From NCBI GenBank assembly GCA_963846555.1, contig CAWJWI010000004.1:2043616-2107615 (forward strand): a stretch of 64,000 nt of DNA. Direction: 5' to 3'. Position 1 is the first letter of the stretch, and each line of letters begins with the position of its first letter. Positions 20-11,745 of this stretch are shown one piece after another. Source of the DNA: an uncultured Microthrixaceae bacterium (GTDB lineage: Bacteria; Actinomycetota; Acidimicrobiia; Acidimicrobiales; VFJN01). Below the pieces are notes generated by a model. The model searched no databases. It saw nothing but the letters and a program-made list of their open reading frames with translations, and had not been told where the DNA came from. A program made the position numbers and the translations under genes.

Positions 20-1078
20 TCAACGGTGCAGCTGCAGCTCGACGAGCAGGTCGCGGAGCTGCTCGAGGTCGGTGAACTGCTCGGCCCGCATCCCCAGCAC
101 CCGGGCCGCCTCCACATGAGAGAGCGTGTCGTCCACGAACAGCACCCTGTCGAGGGGCACGCCGATCCGCTCGGCGGCGGCCGCGAAGGCGCCTCCGTCG
201 GGCTTGGCCACGCCGATGTCGGCCGACCCGACCACGGCGTCGAAGGACTCGGTGATGCCAGACAGCTCGAGGTCGAGCTGCAGGTGGCTGCTGGCGTTCG
301 ACAGCAGGGCCACGGGCACGACGTCACGCACGGCCTCGACGAGCTCGAGCACGGCGAGGTCGATCTGCCAGGTCGAGGTGGCGAGGGCGTCGGCCGCCGA
401 TGACGGCTCGGCCCCATGGCGGGCCGCGATCTCCTCGCCCACCTCCGCGCACCACGCCTCGAAGGGGAGGCGGCCGTCGACCACCCGCGCGAGCCGGTCC
501 TCTTCGAGAGCGACCGACATCAGCGTGCCCTCGGGGATGCCGAGGCGACGGTCGGCTTCGGGACCGTAGGCCGGGTCCCAGTGCCGGATGACGCCGTCCA
601 GGTCGATGATGAGACCGTCGACCTGCGGAGCGAGCGGCTCCTCGGGCTCCTCGACCGCCGCTTCGGCTGAGCCTTCTGCGCCGCCCCGGACCTCCTTGGC
701 GATGCGGGCCAGCAGACCGTTCACGAAGCGCCCGGAGGCGTCGGTCGAGAAGCGGGAGGCCAGGTCCACGGTCTCGGAGAGGATGACGCCAGTGGGCACG
801 TCTGTGCGGGCGATCAGCTCCGCCGAGCCCATTCGCAGGGCCGCCCTGTCGAGGGCCGGCATGCGAGAAAGGGTCCAGCCCTGAGCGAACTGGGTCAGCA
901 GGCCGTCGATCCGCTCGCGGTGCTCGTCCACGGCGCGCACCAGGGAAACCGCGAAGTCGTCGGGTTCGACGGGGAGGTCGTCGAGCACCTCCGCTCCGGT
1001 GGTGCCCTTCGTCTCCGCTTCGTAGAGCAGTCCGAGGGCGCGCTCGCGCGCCGCTCGCCGCTCGATGGCGAGGGACAT
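20..1078 (-). CDS. nusB: Transcription antitermination factor NusB fused to a C-terminal HAD-superfamily hydrolase domain
   Basis: Uninterrupted 352-aa ORF. Residues 1-135 are NusB-like (RERALGLLYEAE, SRMPALDRAALRMGSAELI, ETVDLASRFS, FVNGLLARIA). After an acidic linker, residues ~160-352 carry the HAD motifs DLDGV / LLSNAS / AKPD / FVDD. The ATG at 1076-1078 lies 5 nt after the efp stop. Confidence 0.8.
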   Translation of the reverse strand: MSLAIERRAARERALGLLYEAETKGTTGAEVLDDLPVEPDDFAVSLVRAVDEHRERIDGLLTQFAQGWTLSRMPALDRAALRMGSAELIARTDVPTGVILSETVDLASRFSTDASGRFVNGLLARIAKEVRGGAEGSAEAAVEEPEEPLAPQVDGLIIDLDGVIRHWDPAYGPEADRRLGIPEGTLMSVALEEDRLARVVDGRLPFEAWCAEVGEEIAARHGAEPSSAADALATSTWQIDLAVLELVEAVRDVVPVALLSNASSHLQLDLELSGITESFDAVVGSADIGVAKPDGGAFAAAAERIGVPLDRVLFVDDTLSHVEAARVLGMRAEQFTDLEQLRDLLVELQLHR

Positions 1079-4235: not shown

Positions 4236-4804
4236 GGGCCCGCCTCGCTGCTGACCCGGGCCCGTTCGTGGTCGCGCACGAGCCGCTCGATGTGCTCGGC
4301 CAGCGCCCGCTTCGGGTGCTCCTGTCCGAGGTGGAAGGGCTGTACGTCGACCGTGATGTCGGCCAGGTCGCGGTAGAGCGGGGCCCGTTCAGCGTGGAGG
4401 CGCACGAGGACGTCTCGCGGCGTCTCCTCCCCGGCCAAGAGGGGCCGGTGCTCTCGCTTGGCGATGCGGCTGGCCAGGAACGCCGGGTCGGCGTCGAGCC
4501 ACACGACCGTCACCTCGGGCTCATGGAGGCGGCGTCGGTTGTCCTCGCGGAGGACGACGCCGCCACCACTTGCGATCACGTGTGGCTGGTGGTGCTCGAG
4601 CAGCTCCTCGAGCACGTCGGCCTCCAACGCACGGAAGCGCTCCTCGCCGTCTGTGGCGAACACCTCCGCGATCGTGCGCTCTGTGATCTCCACGAGCGCA
4701 TCGTCGGCGTCGACGAACTGCCGGTCGAGCCGGGTTGCCAGGCGACGACCCACCGTGGTCTTGCCCGAGCCCATGAGGCCGACCAGCACGACGTGATGGG
4801 CCAT
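4232..4804 (-). CDS. aroK: Shikimate kinase
   Basis: 190 aa with the P-loop VLVGLMGSGKTTVGRRLA. Its start and stop overlap aroC and aroB respectively. Confidence 0.9.
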   Translation of the reverse strand: MAHHVVLVGLMGSGKTTVGRRLATRLDRQFVDADDALVEITERTIAEVFATDGEERFRALEADVLEELLEHHQPHVIASGGGVVLREDNRRRLHEPEVTVVWLDADPAFLASRIAKREHRPLLAGEETPRDVLVRLHAERAPLYRDLADITVDVQPFHLGQEHPKRALAEHIERLVRDHERARVSSEAGP

Positions 4805-5976
4805 CAGCCGAGCGTGGCGAGGAACGCGTCGCGGTTGCGGCGCAGCTCGTCGACGGAGTCGCCCCCGAACTTGCGGGTGGCTTCGTCGGCCAGCACGAGG
4901 GCCACCATGGTCTCGGCCACAACGCCCATCGCGGGCACGGCGGTCACGTCGGTGCGCTCCTTGAAGCTGACCGTCTCCTCCTTGGTGGCCGTGTCGACGG
5001 TCTTGAGCGTGGGGCGGTTGAGCGTGGCGAGTGGCTTCATGGCTGCCCTGGCCACGAGCAGCTCGCCAGTGGAGATGCCACCTTCGACACCGCCGGCCAG
5101 GGCCGACTCCCGCCGGTAGGCGCTCGCCTCGGCATCCCAGGAGATGGGGTCGTGGGCCTCGCTCCCCCGGCGCCCCGCCACCTCGAAGCCGTCACCGATC
5201 TCGACGCCCTTGACGGCCTGGATCGACATGAGGGCTCGGGCGAGCAGCGCATCGAGCTTGCGGTCCCAGTGCACGTGGCTCCCGAGGCCGACGGGCACGC
5301 CGTAGCCGAGCACCTCGACCACGCCGCCCAGGCTGTCGCCGTCCTTCGCGGCAGCCTTGATCTCCTCGACCATGGCCTCTTCGGCTGACGGGTCGAAGCA
5401 CCGCACCGGCGACTCGTCGACCTGGGCCAGGTCCGAGGGCGCGGGGCGCCCGGTGGCCTTCGAGCGGGCTGCGCCCATCTGGATGACGTGGCTGATGACC
5501 GCGATGTCGAGCTGAGCGAGCAGCGCCTTGGCGACCGTCCCCGCGGCGACGCGGGCGGCTGTCTCGCGGGCCGAGGCCCGCTCGAGGATGTCGCGGGCAT
5601 CGGTGAGGCCGTACTTCTGCATGCCGGCCAGGTCGGCGTGGCCTGGGCGCACCGAGGTGAGCGGCGCCTTGGTGGGGCCGTCCTCGGCCCGCACCGACAT
5701 CTCCTTCTGCCACTTGTCCGGGTCGCGGTCCCACTCGCTGTTGGCGACCTCGATGGCGACGGGCGACCCGAGCGTGCGACCGTGCCGGACGCCGCCGATG
5801 ATCGTGACCTCGTCCTGCTCGAAGCGCATGCGAGGGCCACGGCCGTACCCGAGGCGGCGGCGACCCAGCTCGCTCTGCACCTCCTCCACGGCCAGGGGCA
5901 GCCCAGCGGGCAGCCCCTCGACGATGACGACGAGGGCCCGTCCGTGCGACTCGCCTGCCGTCAGGTACCTGAGCAT
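4804..5976 (-). CDS. aroC: Chorismate synthase
   Basis: Contains MLRYLTAGESHGRALV, RPGHADLAG and SARETAARVAAG. I trimmed the ORF-track start (6078) to the ATG at 5974-5976, which gives the family-typical N-terminus. Confidence 0.92.
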   Translation of the reverse strand: MLRYLTAGESHGRALVVIVEGLPAGLPLAVEEVQSELGRRRLGYGRGPRMRFEQDEVTIIGGVRHGRTLGSPVAIEVANSEWDRDPDKWQKEMSVRAEDGPTKAPLTSVRPGHADLAGMQKYGLTDARDILERASARETAARVAAGTVAKALLAQLDIAVISHVIQMGAARSKATGRPAPSDLAQVDESPVRCFDPSAEEAMVEEIKAAAKDGDSLGGVVEVLGYGVPVGLGSHVHWDRKLDALLARALMSIQAVKGVEIGDGFEVAGRRGSEAHDPISWDAEASAYRRESALAGGVEGGISTGELLVARAAMKPLATLNRPTLKTVDTATKEETVSFKERTDVTAVPAMGVVAETMVALVLADEATRKFGGDSVDELRRNRDAFLATLG

Positions 5977-6095
5977 CGGGACAACGCTACTGGCCGGCCG
6001 CCAAACGACAGGAACCCGTTGCCCCTCCTGACGCTGCCGTCGAGGGCCGCACGGGCCGGATCGTCGACCAGCCTGCACCGCTACCTGGCCCCACG

Positions 6096-6866
6096 TCAGA
6101 CCAGCCGCAGGTCCGTGGCGTAGAAGGCCACGACTAGGCAGGCCAGCGCGAGGGCCGGACCGAACGGGAACTCGCCTCGCCGCCGGGTGACGATGGCGGA
6201 GAGCCCCCCGAACAGCACCCCCAACAGGCAGCCCAGCATCAGTCCGTAGAGCACGAGCTGGATCGGCCCCCCGACGGGATGCGAGCTCGACCAGCCCAGC
6301 CAGCCCAGGTAGAGGCCCATGACCAGCGCCAGCTTCACGTCACCGAAGCCCATGCCCCGCGGGTACACGAGGTGGGGCACGAGGAGGAGCACGAAGTAGG
6401 CGACCGAACCGATGAGGGCCGCCACGAACGAGTCCCCGTCGTCGTACCGGAGCGAGGCCAAGCCGACGAGGGGCACGGCGAGGGCCAGGGTCGGGAAGGT
6501 GACGAGGTCGGGGATGCGGAGGAGCTGGAGATCGATGACCGAGACCGCGACGAGCGAGGCGGCCAGCACGAGCAGGGGCACGATGCGGAGGTCCTCGCCG
6601 AAGCGGGCCGCGAAGATCGCGAAGACGACGGCCGTGACCAGCTCGACCCACAGCCACCGCTTGGGCAGTGCCTCCGCGCCGCCCCGCCCGCCCCGGAGCA
6701 GCCAGGGCTGGAACGGCGCCCCGGCCACCTCGATCGGCTCCGCCGGCTCGCCGTCCCGCGGTCCCCGCAGGGTCACCTTGTCGGGCACCCGGTCGATGAC
6801 GACGTTGAGGAACGATCCGACAGGAACACCGAGCACCCCGAGCCCCACCACCGCCGCCGCGTTCAC
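6096..6866 (-). CDS. A24 family prepilin peptidase-like membrane protease
   Basis: 256-aa polytopic membrane ORF with GSFLNVVIDR near the N-terminus and both catalytic Asp contexts (VIDLQLLRIPD and GFGDVKL). The Cys-rich Zn motif found in many PilD N-terminal loops is absent. Confidence 0.75.
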   Translation of the reverse strand: MNAAAVVGLGVLGVPVGSFLNVVIDRVPDKVTLRGPRDGEPAEPIEVAGAPFQPWLLRGGRGGAEALPKRWLWVELVTAVVFAIFAARFGEDLRIVPLLVLAASLVAVSVIDLQLLRIPDLVTFPTLALAVPLVGLASLRYDDGDSFVAALIGSVAYFVLLLVPHLVYPRGMGFGDVKLALVMGLYLGWLGWSSSHPVGGPIQLVLYGLMLGCLLGVLFGGLSAIVTRRRGEFPFGPALALACLVVAFYATDLRLV

Positions 6867-6884
6867 GTTCGGGACCCTAGAAGA

Positions 6885-8462
6885 TCAGCGCGTGTCGCCC
6901 GAGAGCAGGTAGCGCAGCTCGCTGGGGTCGACGGCCCGGTCGGCGGCCACTTCGGCATCGACGATGCCGTCATGCACGAGATCGGCCAGGGATTGGTCCA
7001 TCGTCCCCATGCCGCTCGTCGCTCCACCCAGGATGGCCTTCGACAGGTTGGCTGAGTCGCCCGCGCGGATGCACTCGACGACAGCCGGCGTGGGCAAGAG
7101 CACCTCGGTGGCGAGGGCCACGCCACCGTCGAGGGCCGGCACGAGCTGCTGGACGACGATGCCCCGCAGGGTGGTGGCCAGCTGCATTCTCACCTGGGGT
7201 TGCTGATCGACGGGGAACACGTCCACGATGCGCTCCACCGTCTGCACGGCGTCGATGGTGCGCAGGGTGGCGAACACGAGGTGCCCGGTCTCGGCCGCGC
7301 CCATGGCGAGGCGGATGGTCTCCACGTCGGGCAGCTCGCCGGCCACGAGCACATCAGGGTCCTGGCGCAGAGCATGACGGAGACCCGACGCGAAGCTCGC
7401 GGTGTCCTCCCCCACCTCCCGTTGGTTCACGAGGCCGCGCTGGTGTCGGTGCAGGAACTCGATCGGGTCCTCGACGGTCAGGATGTGGTCGGCCCGGGTG
7501 CGGTTGATCGAGTCGACGAGGGCGGCCAGCGTGGTCGAGGTGCCCGAGCCATGGGGACCGCAGACCAGCACGAGGCCGCGGCGGTGCTCGGCCCAGTCGA
7601 TCACCTCGTCGGGCAGGCCCAGGTCCTCGGCGCTGGGGATCTCGGCTGGCACCACCCGGAGCACGGCGCCGACCGAGTCCCGTTGGATGAAGGCGGAGAC
7701 CCGGAACCGGCCCTTGCCAGGTATGGCATGCGAGGTGGAGAGCTCGCCGTCGGCGAGGAAGCGATCGCGCTGGCGTTGGGTCAGGACGCCCAGGACGAGC
7801 CGACGCACCTCCGATCCGTTGAGCTGGCCGTGGCCGGGCATGCGTCGGAGCTCGCCCTGGACCCGAACGACAGGCGGGGCGCCGACGGAGAGGTGGAGGT
7901 CCGAGCCACCCACCCGCACGACCTCGCCGAGGAGGTCATCGAGCTGGAGCGGACGCGCCGGCCGAGCCGGGTCACCGGGTTGGTCGTCCGAAGCGCCTGC
8001 CGCGGCGCCCGTCCCGCCCGACGCCGGGCCGTACATCTGCTCGATCAGGCGGAGGAGGTCGTCCCGTACAGCGACAACAGGGATCACGGGAACCCCGAGG
8101 TCGGTCTCCAACGTGGAGATGACCTGCTCGTCCCCCGGATCCTCCAGGACGACGACGAGCCCTGTCGCCCGGCGCTCGAGGGCGACGGCGATGTAGCCCC
8201 GAGCCAGGTCCTCAGGGACGAGACCCCACACGTCGGGCAAGATCGACTGCTCGGCCAGGTCGACGAAGGGCACGCCCAGCTCGCTCGCCACGGCGGCGGT
8301 GAGGTCGTGATCGCTGACGACCTCCTCCAGGGTGAGCAGCTGCGTCAGGTGGATGCCGTCGGCCGCCTCGCGGGCGAGGAGCTCCTCGAGCGCGTCTCTG
8401 GACAGCACCCGCCGGGCCACCAGGAACTCGCCGAGGCGTCGAGAGGAGATGCGCATGCTCAA
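6885..8462 (-). CDS. PilT-like type IV pilus/T2SS ATPase with an N-terminal T2SSE_N (MshEN-like) domain and degenerate catalytic motifs
   Basis: 525 aa. Residues ~8-75 resemble GspE/MshE N-terminal domains (RRLGEFLVARRVLSRDALEELLARE...ELGVPFVDL). Residues ~180-525 align along their length to PilT (GSDLHLSVGAPPVVRVQGEL, ILTVEDPIEF, LVNQREVG, AAETGHLVF). Walker A reads GPHGSGTST rather than GPTGSGKST, GEMRD reads GELPD, and the His box TLHT reads TLRT. Confidence 0.8.
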   Translation of the reverse strand: MSMRISSRRLGEFLVARRVLSRDALEELLAREAADGIHLTQLLTLEEVVSDHDLTAAVASELGVPFVDLAEQSILPDVWGLVPEDLARGYIAVALERRATGLVVVLEDPGDEQVISTLETDLGVPVIPVVAVRDDLLRLIEQMYGPASGGTGAAAGASDDQPGDPARPARPLQLDDLLGEVVRVGGSDLHLSVGAPPVVRVQGELRRMPGHGQLNGSEVRRLVLGVLTQRQRDRFLADGELSTSHAIPGKGRFRVSAFIQRDSVGAVLRVVPAEIPSAEDLGLPDEVIDWAEHRRGLVLVCGPHGSGTSTTLAALVDSINRTRADHILTVEDPIEFLHRHQRGLVNQREVGEDTASFASGLRHALRQDPDVLVAGELPDVETIRLAMGAAETGHLVFATLRTIDAVQTVERIVDVFPVDQQPQVRMQLATTLRGIVVQQLVPALDGGVALATEVLLPTPAVVECIRAGDSANLSKAILGGATSGMGTMDQSLADLVHDGIVDAEVAADRAVDPSELRYLLSGDTR

Positions 8463-8497
8463 AGGATCTCCCGCCGCGGGCGGGCAGGCCCGGATGG

Positions 8498-9592
8498 TCA
8501 GCTCTTCACCGAGGAGAGGAACTTGAGGAGGAGGCCACGGTTGATCGAGCCATCGGTCTCCTCGGTCGCTTCGTCGAGGGCGGCGTCGCGCTCCTCGTCG
8601 GTGACGGCCTGCGCCGCGGCCCGCACCGCGTCAGCCGCACGGGGCGAGAGGGTGGCCAGCTGACGGGCCAGCTCCTCGTCATCGGCTGAGGCGACGGTGC
8701 CGCGGTTGGCCAGGCCCGGGAAGGCGGCCGCCAGGTCGTCGACCGCGATGTCCGCTGCTGGCTCCTCCTCGGTCGGCTTGGACGACATGTGACCGGGGAG
8801 CTCGATGGGCACAAACCGCTCGGGCTCGGAGGGACCGTCGTCCGCCGGCTGCTGCGCCTTGCTCCGCCGGGGTCGGAGAGGCCGGGCCACGGGCAGCTCG
8901 TCGTCGGCCTCAGCCAAAGGCGGTGCTGCCGGGCTGGCAGCCGGCTCCGGCGCCTCGGCCGAGGCTGCGGACATGTGCCTGTCGAGGTCGATGGTGGGCG
9001 GCTCGGGAGCAGCCGTGACCCTGGCGTCCGGGTGGGGCGACGGGGCGGCCGCCCCGATCTCGACCACACCGAGCTCGACGAGGTCGCGAAGGGCCCGGGA
9101 CACGGGGAGCTCGGCCAGCTGCAGCTCGTCGGCGACGGTCCGCACGCTGTCACCGCCACCGACCGCGACGAGGGTGGTCCACTGCTCGCTCGTGATGCTG
9201 ACCGTCGGACCGTCGAGGGTGCGTCGCAGCCGGACGTGCGCATCCAGTGACGGCACCACGGCTTCGATCTCGCGCCACTCGGCCAAGAGCGCCTCGGCAC
9301 CCGCAAGGAGGGACTCGACGTCGACGTCGGGACCAGACGATGGGGGGGCTTCGTCCGGCTCGAAGGCGAACGAGCCCTCGCGGAAGCGCAGCAGCTCGAA
9401 GACTGCGTCGACGGGCTCGACAGCGTGGGGTGCGTGGGTGGCCTCCACGACGCAGACTGCTCCCCCGGAGACCCAGATGCTGCCCGCGCCGCGCTCGGAG
9501 GTGATCCGCAGTCGTCCGCTCTTCTTCGTGGCGCCGAGGAGGCGCAGCACGTCAGGAAGAGCAAAGGTGTCGAGGGTGCCCTGCAGGGCCAC
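8498..9592 (-). CDS. DUF4388 domain protein with a central wHTH-like segment and a disordered acidic C-terminal half
   Basis: 364 aa. The N-terminus LQGTLDTFALPDVLRLLGATKKSGRLRITSERGAGSIWVSGGAVCVVEA matches the DUF4388 pattern. SVRTVADELQLAELPVSRALRDLVELGVVEI looks like a winged helix. The last 15 aa, INRGLLLKFLSSVKS, are amphipathic. The GTG start is preceded by GGAGG. Confidence 0.6.
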   Translation of the reverse strand: MALQGTLDTFALPDVLRLLGATKKSGRLRITSERGAGSIWVSGGAVCVVEATHAPHAVEPVDAVFELLRFREGSFAFEPDEAPPSSGPDVDVESLLAGAEALLAEWREIEAVVPSLDAHVRLRRTLDGPTVSITSEQWTTLVAVGGGDSVRTVADELQLAELPVSRALRDLVELGVVEIGAAAPSPHPDARVTAAPEPPTIDLDRHMSAASAEAPEPAASPAAPPLAEADDELPVARPLRPRRSKAQQPADDGPSEPERFVPIELPGHMSSKPTEEEPAADIAVDDLAAAFPGLANRGTVASADDEELARQLATLSPRAADAVRAAAQAVTDEERDAALDEATEETDGSINRGLLLKFLSSVKS

Positions 9593-9662
9593 GCTGACCT
9601 CCGGGTCAAGTGGTTCGATCTACCCATCGGCACGAACGGGCCGTGGCTTCAGTGGATTCTTC

Positions 9663-10515
9663 TTACCTCCGGTGGAGAAGGGACGCCATCACGGCGGCGC
9701 TCATGGCCTCCAGGGGGGGCTCCTCGCTGGTCCAGATCCGGAAGGCGTGGGCGGCCTGGTGGATGAGCATCCCGAGCCCGTTGACGGTGCGCAGGCCCTG
9801 GCCTCGGGCCGCCTCGGCCAGCGGGGTGATCACAGGGTGGTAGATCAGGTCGACGAGCACCTGGCCGGCCCCGAGGAGGCCTGGGTCGACGGGCAGAGGC
9901 TCCTCCTCGCCGTCGGTGGTCACGACGACTCCCATCCCCAGCGGGGTGGCGTTGATGACGACGTCGACTGTGCCGGCGTCCTCCGGAACCCCGACCCTCC
10001 CGACTCCACCGGCCAGCGCAGCCGCCGTCTCGGCTCGGTCCGGTGTCCGGTTCACGACGACCACGACCGAGGCTCCGGCCCGACCCAGCGCACGGACCAC
10101 CGCGCGCGCCGCACCCCCGGCGCCCAGCACGGCGAACGTGCGGCCGGCCGGGTCGAGGCCTTCGTCGAGCCGAAGGGCGTCGACCAGGCCGGGGCCATCG
10201 GTGTTGTGACCCACGAGCTCCCCGCCGTGCCGGGCGACGCAGTTGACGGCGCCGAGGACCTCAGCATCCTCGCGTGAGCCCGTCCAGGGCATCGAGGACG
10301 GCGGCCTTGTGAGGCATGGTGACCGAGACCCCCTCGAGGCCGAAGGCGCGCACGCCGGCCATGGCCAGACCTGCCGCGCCCTCGGGCACCTCGAAGGCGA
10401 GGTAGGCCCAGTCCAGGCCGCTGGCCGCGAAGGCCGCGTTGAAGATGGTGGGCGACAGCGAGTGCCGGACGGGAAGCCCGATGACGCCCGTGGTGCGGGT
10501 GGTCGCGCTGATCAC
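9663..10515 (-). CDS. aroE: Shikimate dehydrogenase (reading frame interrupted once in this sequence)
   Basis: The N-terminal part (GVIGLPVRHSLSPTIFNAAF...VSVTMPHKAAVLDALD) is the tail of ORF 10261..10929. The C-terminal part (LGAVNCV...GHNTDGPGL...VLGAGGAARAV) is ORF 9663..10292. The frame switches near 10270-10290. The GTG start at 10513-10515 is an estimate. Confidence 0.8.
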
Positions 10516-10528
10516 GAGGTCACCAGGA

Positions 10529-11745
10529 TCAGCCGCACCCGAGGCCGTTCTCACGGCAGCGGGCCTTGGCGGCCAGGAACTCGCTGTTGCTCTCGGTGAA
10601 GAAGTGGTTCCCCGCTTCGTCCTCGAGCACGTAGAAGATCCATGGGCCGTCCTCGGGGTTGAGGGCGGCCTCGATGCTGGCCCGGCCCGGGCTGGCGATG
10701 GGCGTAGGGGGCAGGCCCTGGACCCGCCGCGTGTTGTAGGGCGAGTCGCTGGTGAAGTCGATGTCTCCCCGATCGCGACCCGCGATCTCGGCCTCGTAGC
10801 GCGAGGTGGCATCGATCCCGAGCGGGATGCCCTCGCGCAGGCGGTTGTAGATGACCTGGGCCACCTTGGGTCGCTCGGCGTCGACCTTCGTCTCCTCCTC
10901 GATGAGCGACGCCACGATGAGGATCTCATAGGGGGTGAGGTTGAACCGCTCCTGGGCCGAGGCGACGTCCAGCTGGGCCAGCGTGGCGTCGAGCTGCCCG
11001 ACCATCAGGTTGAGGACGGCCAGCTCGTCGGCGCCGGCCGCCACCCGGTAGGTCTCCGGGAAGAGGATCCCCTCGTTGGACGCCTGGTCTGGCGGCTGGG
11101 CGGTGGACCGGACCTGACCGCTGTCGAGGAGCTGCTGCAGGGTGGCCGCGTCCAGGCCCAGGCCGCGCTCGGGGTCGGCCAGTCGAGCGATGGTCTCGGC
11201 GACGGTGAGGCCCTCGGGCATCGTGAACGAGCGCTCGTCGGGTGGACGAGGCCCCGCGGCGAGCAGGTCGACGACGTCACCCATGGCGCTGTCGGTCGGC
11301 AGCTCGTAGAGGCCGGCCTGGAAGGGGCCACCGCCGTTGATGCGGAGATACCACTCCCACACGAAGTCGCTCGAGATGATCCCCTCGGCCGCCAGGAGCT
11401 GGCCGATCTCGTCGGAGGTGGAGCCCTCGGGGATCTCGATCTCCTTGGCTTCGCCCGGCCCGCCGGGCGGATCGATCTGACGGGAGACCCAGAAGGCGGT
11501 CCCGCCGATGACGACCACCAGGATCAGGGCCAGCGCGGCCAGCACGGTCAGGACGCGTCGCCGCGCGAGGACTCCCGGCGCACGTCGACGTAGTGGGCGC
11601 CGCCCGCGCTGCGATCGTCATCCTCGTACTCGTCGTACTCGTCGTACTCGTACTCGTCTTGCTCGAGCTCGTCGTACGGGAGGTCGGCCTCCTGGTCGTA
11701 GAGGTCGTCAGGGGCGTCGGGGTCGTGCGGGGGGCGATCGGTCAC
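10529..11745 (-). CDS. mltG: Endolytic murein transglycosylase MltG (YceG-like) with an acidic N-terminal tail; probable frame interruption near 11560-11600
   Basis: ORF 10529..11545 has a TM helix followed by a YceG domain (LYELPTDSAMGDV, EGILFPETY, ASLIEEET, YNRL, PYNTRRVQGLPPTPIASPG). The acidic 65-aa ORF 11548..11745 starts with a GTG overlapping the ruvX stop (GTGA), as at other coupled junctions here, so I join the two. In the TM frame RRRAPGVLARRRVLTV continues upstream of 11545. Confidence 0.65.

Follow-up and report, generated by a model that had tools for sequence, protein, structure and literature searches.

Cyanobacterial PatA-type PATAN-REC regulators (PixG, PixE, and LsiR) bind PilB1 and PilC; in PixE it is the PATAN domain that binds the N-terminal domain of PilB1, and PilC, and PATAN domains co-occur with GspE_N. 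Among the ATPases of type IV pili, PilT/PilU proteins such as Aquifex PilT (2EWV) and P. aeruginosa PilT (3JVV) are retraction ATPases. TadZ of the Tad/Flp pili, a member of the ParA/MinD-like superfamily, is an ATPase-fold pilus protein with an atypical Walker A that serves as a localization/scaffold factor rather than a motor. Among the A24 prepilin peptidases, the Cys-rich CxxC...CxxC domain is linked to N-methyltransferase activity, and M. tuberculosis Rv2551c is an orphan A24-like gene adjoining aroE, as in other Actinobacteria.

The locus described here brings together proteins related to all three kinds of PATAN, PilT, and A24 component. It lies in a 64-kb stretch (the window) of the 3.07-Mb genome of an uncultured Microthrixaceae bacterium and comprises three intact minus-strand genes flanked by aroE and aroC. 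We think it likely that this trio is the remnant of a type IVa pilus (T4aP) cluster situated between aroE and aroC in Acidimicrobiia, and that its pseudo-PilT and PATAN proteins have a non-motor role. The relevant features of the window are as follows.

4804-5976, minus strand: aroC (chorismate synthase; PF01264 at 5e-115), the downstream flank of the trio
6096-6866, minus strand: A24 (PilD-like) prepilin peptidase, 256 aa (PF01478 and PF06750)
6885-8462, minus strand: MshEN domain plus PilT-family ATPase, a predicted pseudo-ATPase (TIGR01420, PF05157, and PF00437)
7533-7559, minus strand: degenerate Walker A/P-loop of the ATPase (codons read directly; 2EWV alignment)
8498-9592, minus strand: PATAN (DUF4388/PatA_N) protein with a probable winged helix (wHTH), 364 aa (PF14332)
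9663 to about 10515, minus strand: aroE (shikimate dehydrogenase; PF18317 and PF01488), the upstream flank
10529-11545, minus strand: mltG/YceG

A sequence-only reading of this DNA had described a DUF4388/wHTH protein, a T2SSE_N-PilT-like ATPase, and an A24 peptidase separated by gaps of 35 and 18 nt, and open reading frames and profile matches bear out both the gene content and the domain calls. The ATPase and A24 genes are indeed 18 nt apart; the 35-nt gap between the DUF4388 and ATPase genes requires the ATPase to start at the TTG at 8462 (525 aa), and widens to 41 nt if translation begins at the ATG at 8456 (523 aa), as in the identical database protein P0001. The spacing is 70 nt from aroE to the DUF4388 gene and 119 nt from the A24 gene to aroC, 3' of which lie aroK, aroB, aroQ, pepQ, efp, and nusB (ORF translations and synteny). 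Co-transcription of the module with aroE and aroC is probable, as a simple consequence of the ancestral pilus cluster's position inside this housekeeping array. The window was likewise said to hold no pilin, platform, or alignment genes, and this stands: in a search covering 64 kb of the 3.07-Mb genome, tblastn with relatives' T4P proteins as queries detected none of PilB, PilC, pilin, PilM, PilN, or PilO, nor any T2SSE-type ATPase besides that of the trio, and no pilin-like class III signal was found in the rest of the window, nor any Flp-like G/xxxxEY signal within it.

Comparison of gene neighborhoods, which the earlier reading had proposed, found the order of the trio conserved in 19 genome loci (Acidimicrobiales/Microthrixaceae) and in further metagenome loci. 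In the 19 it runs mltG-aroE-DUF4388-ATPase-A24-(0.1-6 kb variable)-aroC-aroK-aroB-aroQ, and independent Pfam calls gave the identical trio order at L033; this recurrence is not due to chance. No pilus genes besides the trio were found within 10 kb of it in the 19 related loci, and in the trio-bearing lineage, whose MAGs go by the names Microthrixaceae, Acidimicrobiales, or Acidimicrobiia, only PATAN, PilT, and PilD are left here. At the same site other Acidimicrobiia have a full T4aP cluster, aroE-pilB-pilT-pilC-pilin-pilD(A24)-pilM-pilN-pilO-aroC, exemplified by L025 (ruvX-mltG-aroE-PilB-PilT-x-pilin-A24-PilM-PilN-...-aroC-aroB-pepQ) and L026 (alaS-ruvX-mltG-aroE-PilB-PilT-PilC-pilin-A24-PilMNO). 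L078, L053, L080, and other metagenome loci follow the same pattern; taxon names accompany some of the comparison loci, the PilTs of L029 and L030 bearing the name "Acidimicrobiia bacterium". The clusters of L025, L026, L029, L030, and L078 occupy the window's own slot, between aroE and aroC/efp, have an MshEN N-terminus on both PilB and PilT, include an A24, and match the window in orientation and order for the genes that it still has. The window differs from them in that PilB, PilC, pilin, and PilM/N/O are missing at the locus, the ATP site and AIRNLIRE motif of its PilT are degenerate, and its A24 lacks the four Cys.

A closer relative, L031, is in an intermediate state (alaS-mltG-aroE-PatA_N-PilB-PilT-PilC). 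The window ATPase is 52% identical to the PilT of this locus, which is intact. The PATAN protein of L031 shares 42% identity with the window ortholog over residues 1-179 as well as the C-terminal tail, A24 and pilMNO are not adjacent, and a pilin gene lies 9 kb downstream. Among metagenome contigs, L044, L045, L048, L054, and L072 have aroE-DUF4388-A24-aroC with no ATPase, and L062, L074, L094, and L041 have aroE-A24-aroC. The last arrangement agrees with the earlier remark on A24 genes beside aro genes elsewhere, with no actinobacterial origin of these contigs implied; the A24 holds the same position as in the Actinobacterial orphans such as Rv2551c, and these loci differ from the window in having neither the PATAN nor the PilT-like gene.

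Since a whole T4aP cluster fills the aroE/aroC interval in related Acidimicrobiia, the trio arose by deletion rather than insertion and, with full, intermediate, and reduced loci at one site, the window corresponds to one step in a series of deletions. The sequence-only reading was sound on gene content, spacing, and missing partners, whereas its terms "inserted" and "orphan" were misleading, and the DUF4388-ATPase pair, which it could assign to no known system, is assignable: in L031 a PATAN ortholog heads an intact pilB-pilT-pilC cluster directly after aroE. It is highly improbable that the trio is an orphan module placed into the shikimate operon, as that reading had it, by horizontal acquisition. 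The genes do interrupt an otherwise housekeeping array and their partners are absent nearby, but their GC content is uniform with that of the flanks, many Acidimicrobiales loci have them in exactly this position and order, relatives carry full or intermediate T4aP clusters in the same interval, and the ATPase's N-terminal domain is nearest to PilTs encoded in Acidimicrobiia clusters.

The ATPase shares its core fold family with the PilT/PilU retraction ATPases. It matches TIGR01420 (pilT_fam) at 407.9 bits (cutoff 319.1) from residue 174 to 515 (2-343 of 343 profile positions), and its PilT core, residues 170-522, aligns to 2EWV with an E value of 2.6e-100 (340 bits). Compared with 2EWV and 3JVV, the protein has an extra N-terminal MshEN/GSPII domain at about residues 9-148 (PF05157 match at 62-148, 54 bits) and has lost ATP-site residues. 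The N-terminal domain is matched best by Acidimicrobiia-type MshEN-PilTs that are intact, 39-49% identical, and colinear with it starting at residue 1. A neighbor-joining tree recovered the trio clade as monophyletic in 50/50 bootstraps, on a long stem, and its placement is ambiguous, the sister group being the intact Acidimicrobiia-type clade in 25/50 and a canonical PilT in 22/50.

Alignment with 2EWV reveals a Walker A of GPHGSGTST (residues 302-310) in place of the canonical PilT GPTGSGKST, with the Lys replaced by Thr and the Thr by His. None of 119 near-full-length orthologs has Lys at the former position (T 87, I 17, L 10, M 5). Other motifs are altered as well: GEMRD has become GELPD, with Pro for Arg at residue 378; the His box TLHT has become TLRT, with Arg for the second His at 401; and the conserved C-terminal Arg, at 448, is replaced by Val or Leu. 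The PilT-specific AIRNLIRE motif is gone, the aligned segment reading AVVECIRAG, and invariant residues close to it have changed from Lys to Asp at 469 and from Gln to Asn at 472. The 119-ortholog comparison identified 13 clade-specific replacements at otherwise invariant positions. In contrast, among 41 intact Acidimicrobiia-type proteins GPTGSGK is present in all 39 matched by the Walker A pattern, and the GEMRD Arg and TLHT His box are present in 41/41. A 50%-identity representative search returned Walker A Lys in 122/149 proteins, and the sole Thr variants among the 149 were fragments of the trio clade. From these replacements we infer that the ATPase has ceased to hydrolyze ATP and does not work as a retraction motor. 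What it retains is most of the P-loop, the Glu of the Asp-box, that of Walker B, and the first His, together with the RFR segment; with the first four of these elements still conserved, the protein may yet bind nucleotide, or hydrolyze it slowly or unusually. The loss of the Walker A Lys and other ATP-site residues had been overlooked in the sequence-only reading.

It is unlikely, in our assessment, that the pseudo-ATPase is a second-messenger sensor that binds c-di-GMP through its MshEN domain. A c-di-GMP-type MshEN domain was defined by PF05157 together with two tandem 24-residue RLGxx[LVI][LVI]xxG[LVI][LVI]xxxxLxxxLxxQ motifs. PF05157 matches, the NCBIfam motif model gives a weak score of 24.5 bits (under its cutoff of 38), and motif I (RLGEFLVARRVLSRDALEELLARE) is highly conserved and agrees at 9/11 consensus positions. 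Motif II (HLTQLLTLEEVVSDHDLTAAVASE), however, agrees at about 5/11 positions, with the R, the two G, and the Q all missing, and at E47 the window ATPase has lost a Gly whose conservation in the intact clade is 90%. The overall pattern resembles the GSPII-A domain of Thermus PilF, which has one good and one degenerate motif and does not bind c-di-GMP (PMC11731258).

The PATAN protein begins with a PATAN domain at about residues 1-110 (PF14332 at residues 4-107, 1.4e-16), followed by a linking helix and what is probably a winged helix (about 125-180), a linker at 186-280 that is disordered and rich in Pro/Ala/Glu, and a conserved helical C-terminal region whose last residues are near-invariant (NRGLLLKFLSSVKS). 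The AF2 model has pLDDT above 90 over residues 1-185 and places a helix-helix-helix-strand at 135-180, consistent with a winged helix; the MarR_2, HTH_27, and TrmB matches are weak and sub-threshold. The conserved blocks were seen in alignments of 14 and of 40 orthologs. In the ATPase-less "duo" loci the protein keeps both its architecture and its C-terminal tail, and it must therefore have at least one partner or role independent of the pseudo-PilT. With the PatA-type regulators it shares the N-terminal PATAN domain and a link, here in the form of conserved adjacency, to a T4P ATPase whose N-terminus is of the GspE_N/MshEN type. A profile search found no Response_reg (CheY-like receiver) match, so that, lacking a REC domain, it is not a response regulator. 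Unlike the cyanobacterial proteins it has the probable winged helix, the long disordered linker, and the conserved helical tail, and its predicted partner is PilT-type and catalytically degenerate, rather than PilB-type.

Purifying selection acts on each of the three genes to a degree similar to that seen in the flanking housekeeping genes. Median pairwise dN/dS is 0.24 in the ATPase, the value also obtained for aroE and aroB; A24 gives 0.32 and DUF4388 0.40, and the flanking genes mltG and aroC give 0.26 and 0.12. The ATPase is 71-83% identical across loci whose aroE is just 62-74% identical, and at least 119 cluster representatives of the ATPase and 120 of DUF4388 have, like the window itself, intact full-length ORFs. 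These values tell against the idea that the trio consists of decaying pseudogenes, non-functional leftovers heading for loss, which is suggested by the missing catalytic residues of the ATPase, by its complete loss in other lineages, and by frameshifts in neighboring genes of the window, but which we regard as having very little chance of being correct. Judged by its sequence, the ATPase is best described as a conserved pseudo-ATPase, not as a gene in decay.

The A24 peptidase appears to remain catalytically competent, its catalytic residues D112 and D176 (in GFGDVKL) being present and invariant in alignment with the A24s of intact clusters. Its N-terminal cytoplasmic domain has no CxxC...CxxC motif; all four Cys are absent from the trio-clade A24s and present in four reference full-cluster A24s. 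By a crude count the motif is also missing in about half of T4P-context A24s, and its absence is therefore no proof of lost function. The pilins of related full clusters bear the canonical EGFTLIELMVVV signal, and the processing of class III (prepilin-type) signal peptides on proteins from elsewhere in the genome may be why the gene was kept.

A likely model for the trio is that the PilT derivative persists as a pseudo-ATPase, probably still as a ring, whose MshEN N-terminal domain would dock the PATAN domain encoded by the gene upstream, by analogy with PilB1 of Synechocystis. The PATAN/pseudo-PilT pair would then be a regulatory or scaffolding device, not a machine. TadZ offers a functional parallel; it comes from a different superfamily, is paired with another domain, and has no homology to the protein here. 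A24 would be a working prepilin peptidase with substrates encoded elsewhere, for example Flp/Tad proteins or relocated pilins. The most likely function thus appears to be that of a non-motor PATAN/pseudo-PilT pair together with a working prepilin peptidase serving remote substrates. The pilB, pilC, pilin, and pilMNO genes may have been relocated rather than lost, with L031 showing a cluster already fragmenting.

The same observation bears on a related proposal, namely that T4a (or Tad) pili are still made from genes elsewhere, the locus keeping the peptidase, the PATAN regulator, and a non-catalytic PilT paralog that tunes the remote machine, for instance by braking it or by competing for the PilC platform. 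The separation of A24, pilMNO, and pilin from the L031 cluster, the intact A24 active site, the purifying selection on all three genes, and the action of cyanobacterial PATAN proteins on pilus motors would all fit such a split but working system. We nevertheless consider it possible rather than probable, given that no further pilus gene was found in the 64-kb window or in the 10 kb around the trio in the 19 related loci, and that the ATPase lacks its ATP site and AIRNLIRE motif.

More tentatively still, and with low probability, the PATAN protein and dead PilT ring might have been exapted after pilus loss as a stand-alone signaling or scaffolding device. Such a device would control something unrelated to pili, for instance functions of the envelope or of secretion, or how the surrounding aro/housekeeping array is expressed; a pseudo-ATPase regulator would have become fixed throughout one clade of Acidimicrobiales, and the long-noticed orphan A24 beside aroE in Actinobacteria would be the last fossil of the ancestral T4aP cluster.

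As a separate observation on the upstream flank, the aroE reading frame of the window breaks near 10270, where tblastn with the L033 aroE as query recovers the gene in two frames (10270/10271).

The trio is read on the minus strand between aroE and aroC, in a window of about 71% G+C throughout that shows no compositional break at the module.

Genes at the aroE/aroC site of the window, from high to low coordinates
10529-11545, minus strand: mltG/YceG
9663 to about 10515, minus strand: aroE
8498-9592, minus strand: DUF4388 (PATAN) protein; PF14332 at residues 4-107 (Pfam)
6885-8462, minus strand: ATPase; PF05157 (MshEN), PF00437 and TIGR01420 (pilT_fam, 408 bits against a cutoff of 319)
6096-6866, minus strand: A24 peptidase; PF01478 and PF06750
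4804-5976, minus strand: aroC, then aroK, aroB, aroQ, pepQ, efp and nusB

Pfam and NCBIfam bear out the domain calls of the sequence-only reading. All three reading frames are intact, and the tight spacing it described holds, with gaps of 18 nt and 35 nt (41 nt in place of 35 nt when translation begins at the ATG at 8456, which is the start of the identical database protein P0001). Judged from this spacing, the trio may plausibly be co-transcribed with its neighbours aroE and aroC; scans of 4700-11700 for promoter and terminator consensus sequences gave no match, a result that is uninformative at 71% GC, and no Rfam family matched anywhere in the window. Naive GC3 gene calling proved too noisy for annotating the window. 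The reported lack of pilin, platform and alignment genes in the window was confirmed by tblastn with PilB, PilC, pilin, PilM, PilN and PilO from related clusters, which matched only the ATPase and A24 genes, and the rest of the 64-kb window contained no class III signal-peptide candidate. Beside the module, the essential genes aroE (around 10270), ruvX (around 12042) and alaS (around 13985) are each split over two reading frames relative to their orthologues in the related locus L033; assembly indels (or pseudogenes) are the probable cause of these splits. The NusB reading frame (20-1078, minus strand) encodes 352 aa, of which about 200 aa form a C-terminal HAD-hydrolase-like extension, against 133 aa for NusB of L033, and may be a fusion or reflect a lost stop codon.

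The trio genes are conserved neighbours. The order mltG-aroE-DUF4388-ATPase-A24-(variable, 0.1-6 kb)-aroC-aroK-aroB-aroQ was found in 19 genome loci, and the trio order is repeated in L033 with independent Pfam calls. Close homologues of the ATPase number in the hundreds; the best 120 clusters are 69-100% identical, and those with a named source come from MAGs of Acidimicrobiales, Microthrixaceae or Acidimicrobiia. Its closest full-length relatives that still have intact motifs are encoded within complete type IVa pilus (T4aP) clusters, which occupy this same site on the chromosome.

Pilus clusters at this site in related loci
L025: ruvX-mltG-aroE-PilB-PilT-x-pilin-A24-PilM-PilN-...-aroC-aroB-pepQ
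L026: alaS-ruvX-mltG-aroE-PilB-PilT-PilC-pilin-A24-PilM-PilN-PilO
L029 and L030: PilB-PilT-PilC-pilin(s)-A24-PilMNO, then efp-nusB or aroC-aroB; PilTs named 'Acidimicrobiia bacterium'
L031: alaS-mltG-aroE-PatA_N(DUF4388)-PilB-PilT-PilC; intermediate state

The pilins of the full clusters (L025, L026, L029 and L030) carry a canonical ...EGFTLIELMVVV class III signal. In L031 the PilT is intact and 52% identical to the window ATPase, while the PATAN protein is 42% identical to that of the window over residues 1-179 and ends at its C-terminus in INRGLLLKFLSSVRS, a tail found also in the window protein. L031 shows that the PATAN gene is a genuine member of the cluster. Further states emerged from a metagenome scan with the A24 alignment, which gave 80 loci: 60 in a T4P context (aroE or aroC also being visible in 11 of those), six with DUF4388 and A24 without a pilus gene, and seven with A24 flanked by aro genes only (e.g. 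L094, L062, L074). In L044, L045, L048, L054 and L072 aroE precedes DUF4388, which is followed directly by A24 with no room for the ATPase, and then by aroC in four cases and aroB in L048; on the sixth, the short contig L037, DUF4388 and A24 lie 2.3 kb apart and no aro gene is present.

Since full, intermediate and further-reduced states occupy the aroE/aroC site of relatives, the window appears to represent one stage of a reduction series rather than an insertion. This series would run from a full T4aP cluster to PATAN, the altered PilT (PilT*) and the PilD-like A24 peptidase, then to PATAN and PilD, and finally to PilD alone. The idea of an "orphan" module "inserted" into the shikimate operon is contradicted by this succession of loci at one chromosomal site, and the origin of the module is explained by ordinary gene loss. 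The main alternative, which is less likely, is that pilB, pilC, the pilins and pilMNO moved to another part of the genome instead of disappearing. Under the gene-loss reading, what had been a puzzle becomes a testable evolutionary series. In a neighbor-joining tree the pseudo-PilT clade was monophyletic in 50/50 bootstraps and had the intact Acidimicrobiia-type clade as its sister in just 25/50, its placement being ambiguous because of a long stem. Orthology to the Acidimicrobiia-type cluster PilTs therefore rests on synteny, on the combination of MshEN and PilT that both share and on the N-terminal domain, which matches intact Acidimicrobiia-type proteins best (39-49% identity, colinear from residue 1). 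Literature searches on Acidimicrobiia pili, Microthrix pili, prepilin peptidase with aroE, or Rv2551c found nothing relevant, and full-text searches found no description of the pseudo-PilT clade or of the aro-embedded cluster. What is new here is a variant of the known T4aP cluster, PilT ATPase and PATAN regulator.

The A24/aroC junction is a hotspot of gain and loss, as the interval holds 1.7-6 kb of variable cargo in L001-L017 and L033 (e.g. L002 12370-14600, L009 10700-16100) against 119 nt in the window. This cargo comprises an APH-like kinase and a conserved 351-aa protein without a Pfam match, with an additional P450 and VapBC-like pair in L009; no pilus-related genes were found among the cargo of relatives. 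L041 (7456-9986) has two reading frames (485 and 429 aa) between aroE and a Cys-containing A24, which from their translations looked like an MBOAT-type acyltransferase and an SGNH-type hydrolase, and is a further case of cargo in place of pilus genes at the aroE/A24 site. In L074 (1860-4860), the contig that bears aroE-A24-aroC has a GC content of just 31.6% and may come from a low-GC actinobacterial lineage or another phylum. L027 (1-11629) carries an MshEN-PilT as an extra PilT paralogue beside PilB, canonical PilT and PilC, in a cluster that also holds a sigma70-GGDEF fusion, pilins and a GAF-HD protein and adjoins pepQ-aroQ on the other strand.

The ATPase itself departs from PilT at several of its hallmark motifs. 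Aligned to the Aquifex PilT structure 2EWV (E 2.6e-100), it has GPHGSGTST in place of the Walker A GPTGSGKST, GELPD in place of GEMRD, TLRT in place of TLHT and AVVECIRAG in place of AIRNLIRE. Among 119 near-full-length orthologues none retains the Walker A Lys (T in 87, I in 17, L in 10, M in 5) and the conserved Arg at 448 is replaced by Val or Leu; essentially no variation is seen at H304, C301, P378, R401 and D469. When 1.84 billion representatives were searched, this clade formed one 50%-identity cluster, and the next 149 proteins had Lys in 122, the sole Thr variants being fragments of the same clade. The Acidimicrobiia-type MshEN-PilTs have GPTGSGK in 39/39 matched by the Walker A pattern (41 examined), and the GEMRD Arg and TLHT in 41/41. 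These alignments show a catalytically degenerate ATPase and a clade-specific loss of its ATP-site residues, and we infer that the pseudo-PilT is no longer able to act as a motor. Full-text searches found no description of a PilT pseudo-ATPase or Lys-less PilT. Among the database proteins P0278-P0354 are many tandem PilT-PilT fusions of about 720 aa, with named sources in Myxococcota, Lentisphaerae, Victivallales and Eremiobacterota.

Median pairwise dN/dS (Nei-Gojobori) across comparison loci
ATPase: 0.24
A24: 0.32
DUF4388 protein: 0.40 (includes the disordered linker)
aroE: 0.24
mltG: 0.26
aroB: 0.24
aroK: 0.26
aroC: 0.12

Across the same loci the ATPase is more conserved than aroE (71-83% against 62-74% identity), and the gene is not decaying. 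This PilT derivative, strongly conserved throughout its clade but without the residues for ATP hydrolysis, is a candidate pseudoenzyme among the secretion and pilus ATPases; its retention with a PATAN partner under strong purifying selection is unexpected and experimentally tractable.

It is plausible that the protein is conserved because it binds or scaffolds, the simplest case being a partnership with the PATAN protein through the MshEN domain. The sequence-only reading could not assign the DUF4388 and ATPase pair to a known system; DUF4388 is the PATAN domain, and its pairing with an MshEN-ATPase therefore corresponds to a known type of interaction, in keeping with the PATAN gene inside the L031 cluster. 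The window PATAN protein has no receiver domain. In its AF2 model residues 1-185 form a confident PATAN-helix-winged-helix unit, followed by a disordered linker at 186-280 and by helices at the C-terminus; Pfam gave only weak MarR/HTH matches to the middle part, and Foldseek found no solved relative. Because this architecture and the tail are kept in the ATPase-less L044, L045, L048, L054 and L072, the PATAN protein would have a role independent of the pseudo-PilT. The C-terminal tail might be a PilT*-docking peptide, but it is equally conserved without the ATPase and its hydrophobic moment is only moderate. The pseudo-PilT clade offers a natural experiment on the roles of the PilT ring and PATAN domain apart from pilus movement.

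The MshEN domain matches 9/11 consensus positions in motif I and only about 5/11 in motif II, a pattern resembling the GSPII-A domain of Thermus PilF, which does not bind c-di-GMP (PMC11731258). We consequently regard c-di-GMP binding by the window domain as doubtful, and a receptor reading was downgraded given the degenerate motif II. In the A24 enzyme the two catalytic Asp residues (D112 and D176) are preserved, and it would most simply be a prepilin peptidase that is still active and is maintained for substrates whose genes lie elsewhere. It lacks the four Cys of reference full-cluster enzymes; this motif is also missing in about half of T4P-context A24s by a crude count, so its loss was dropped as a marker of pilus loss and carries no functional conclusion.

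Genes of the ATPase clade currently carry the name "PilT/PilU family type 4a pilus ATPase" or "twitching motility protein PilT". Both names would lead to a false prediction of twitching motility for Microthrixaceae-type bacteria, which are common in soils and activated sludge, and the second is probably misleading.
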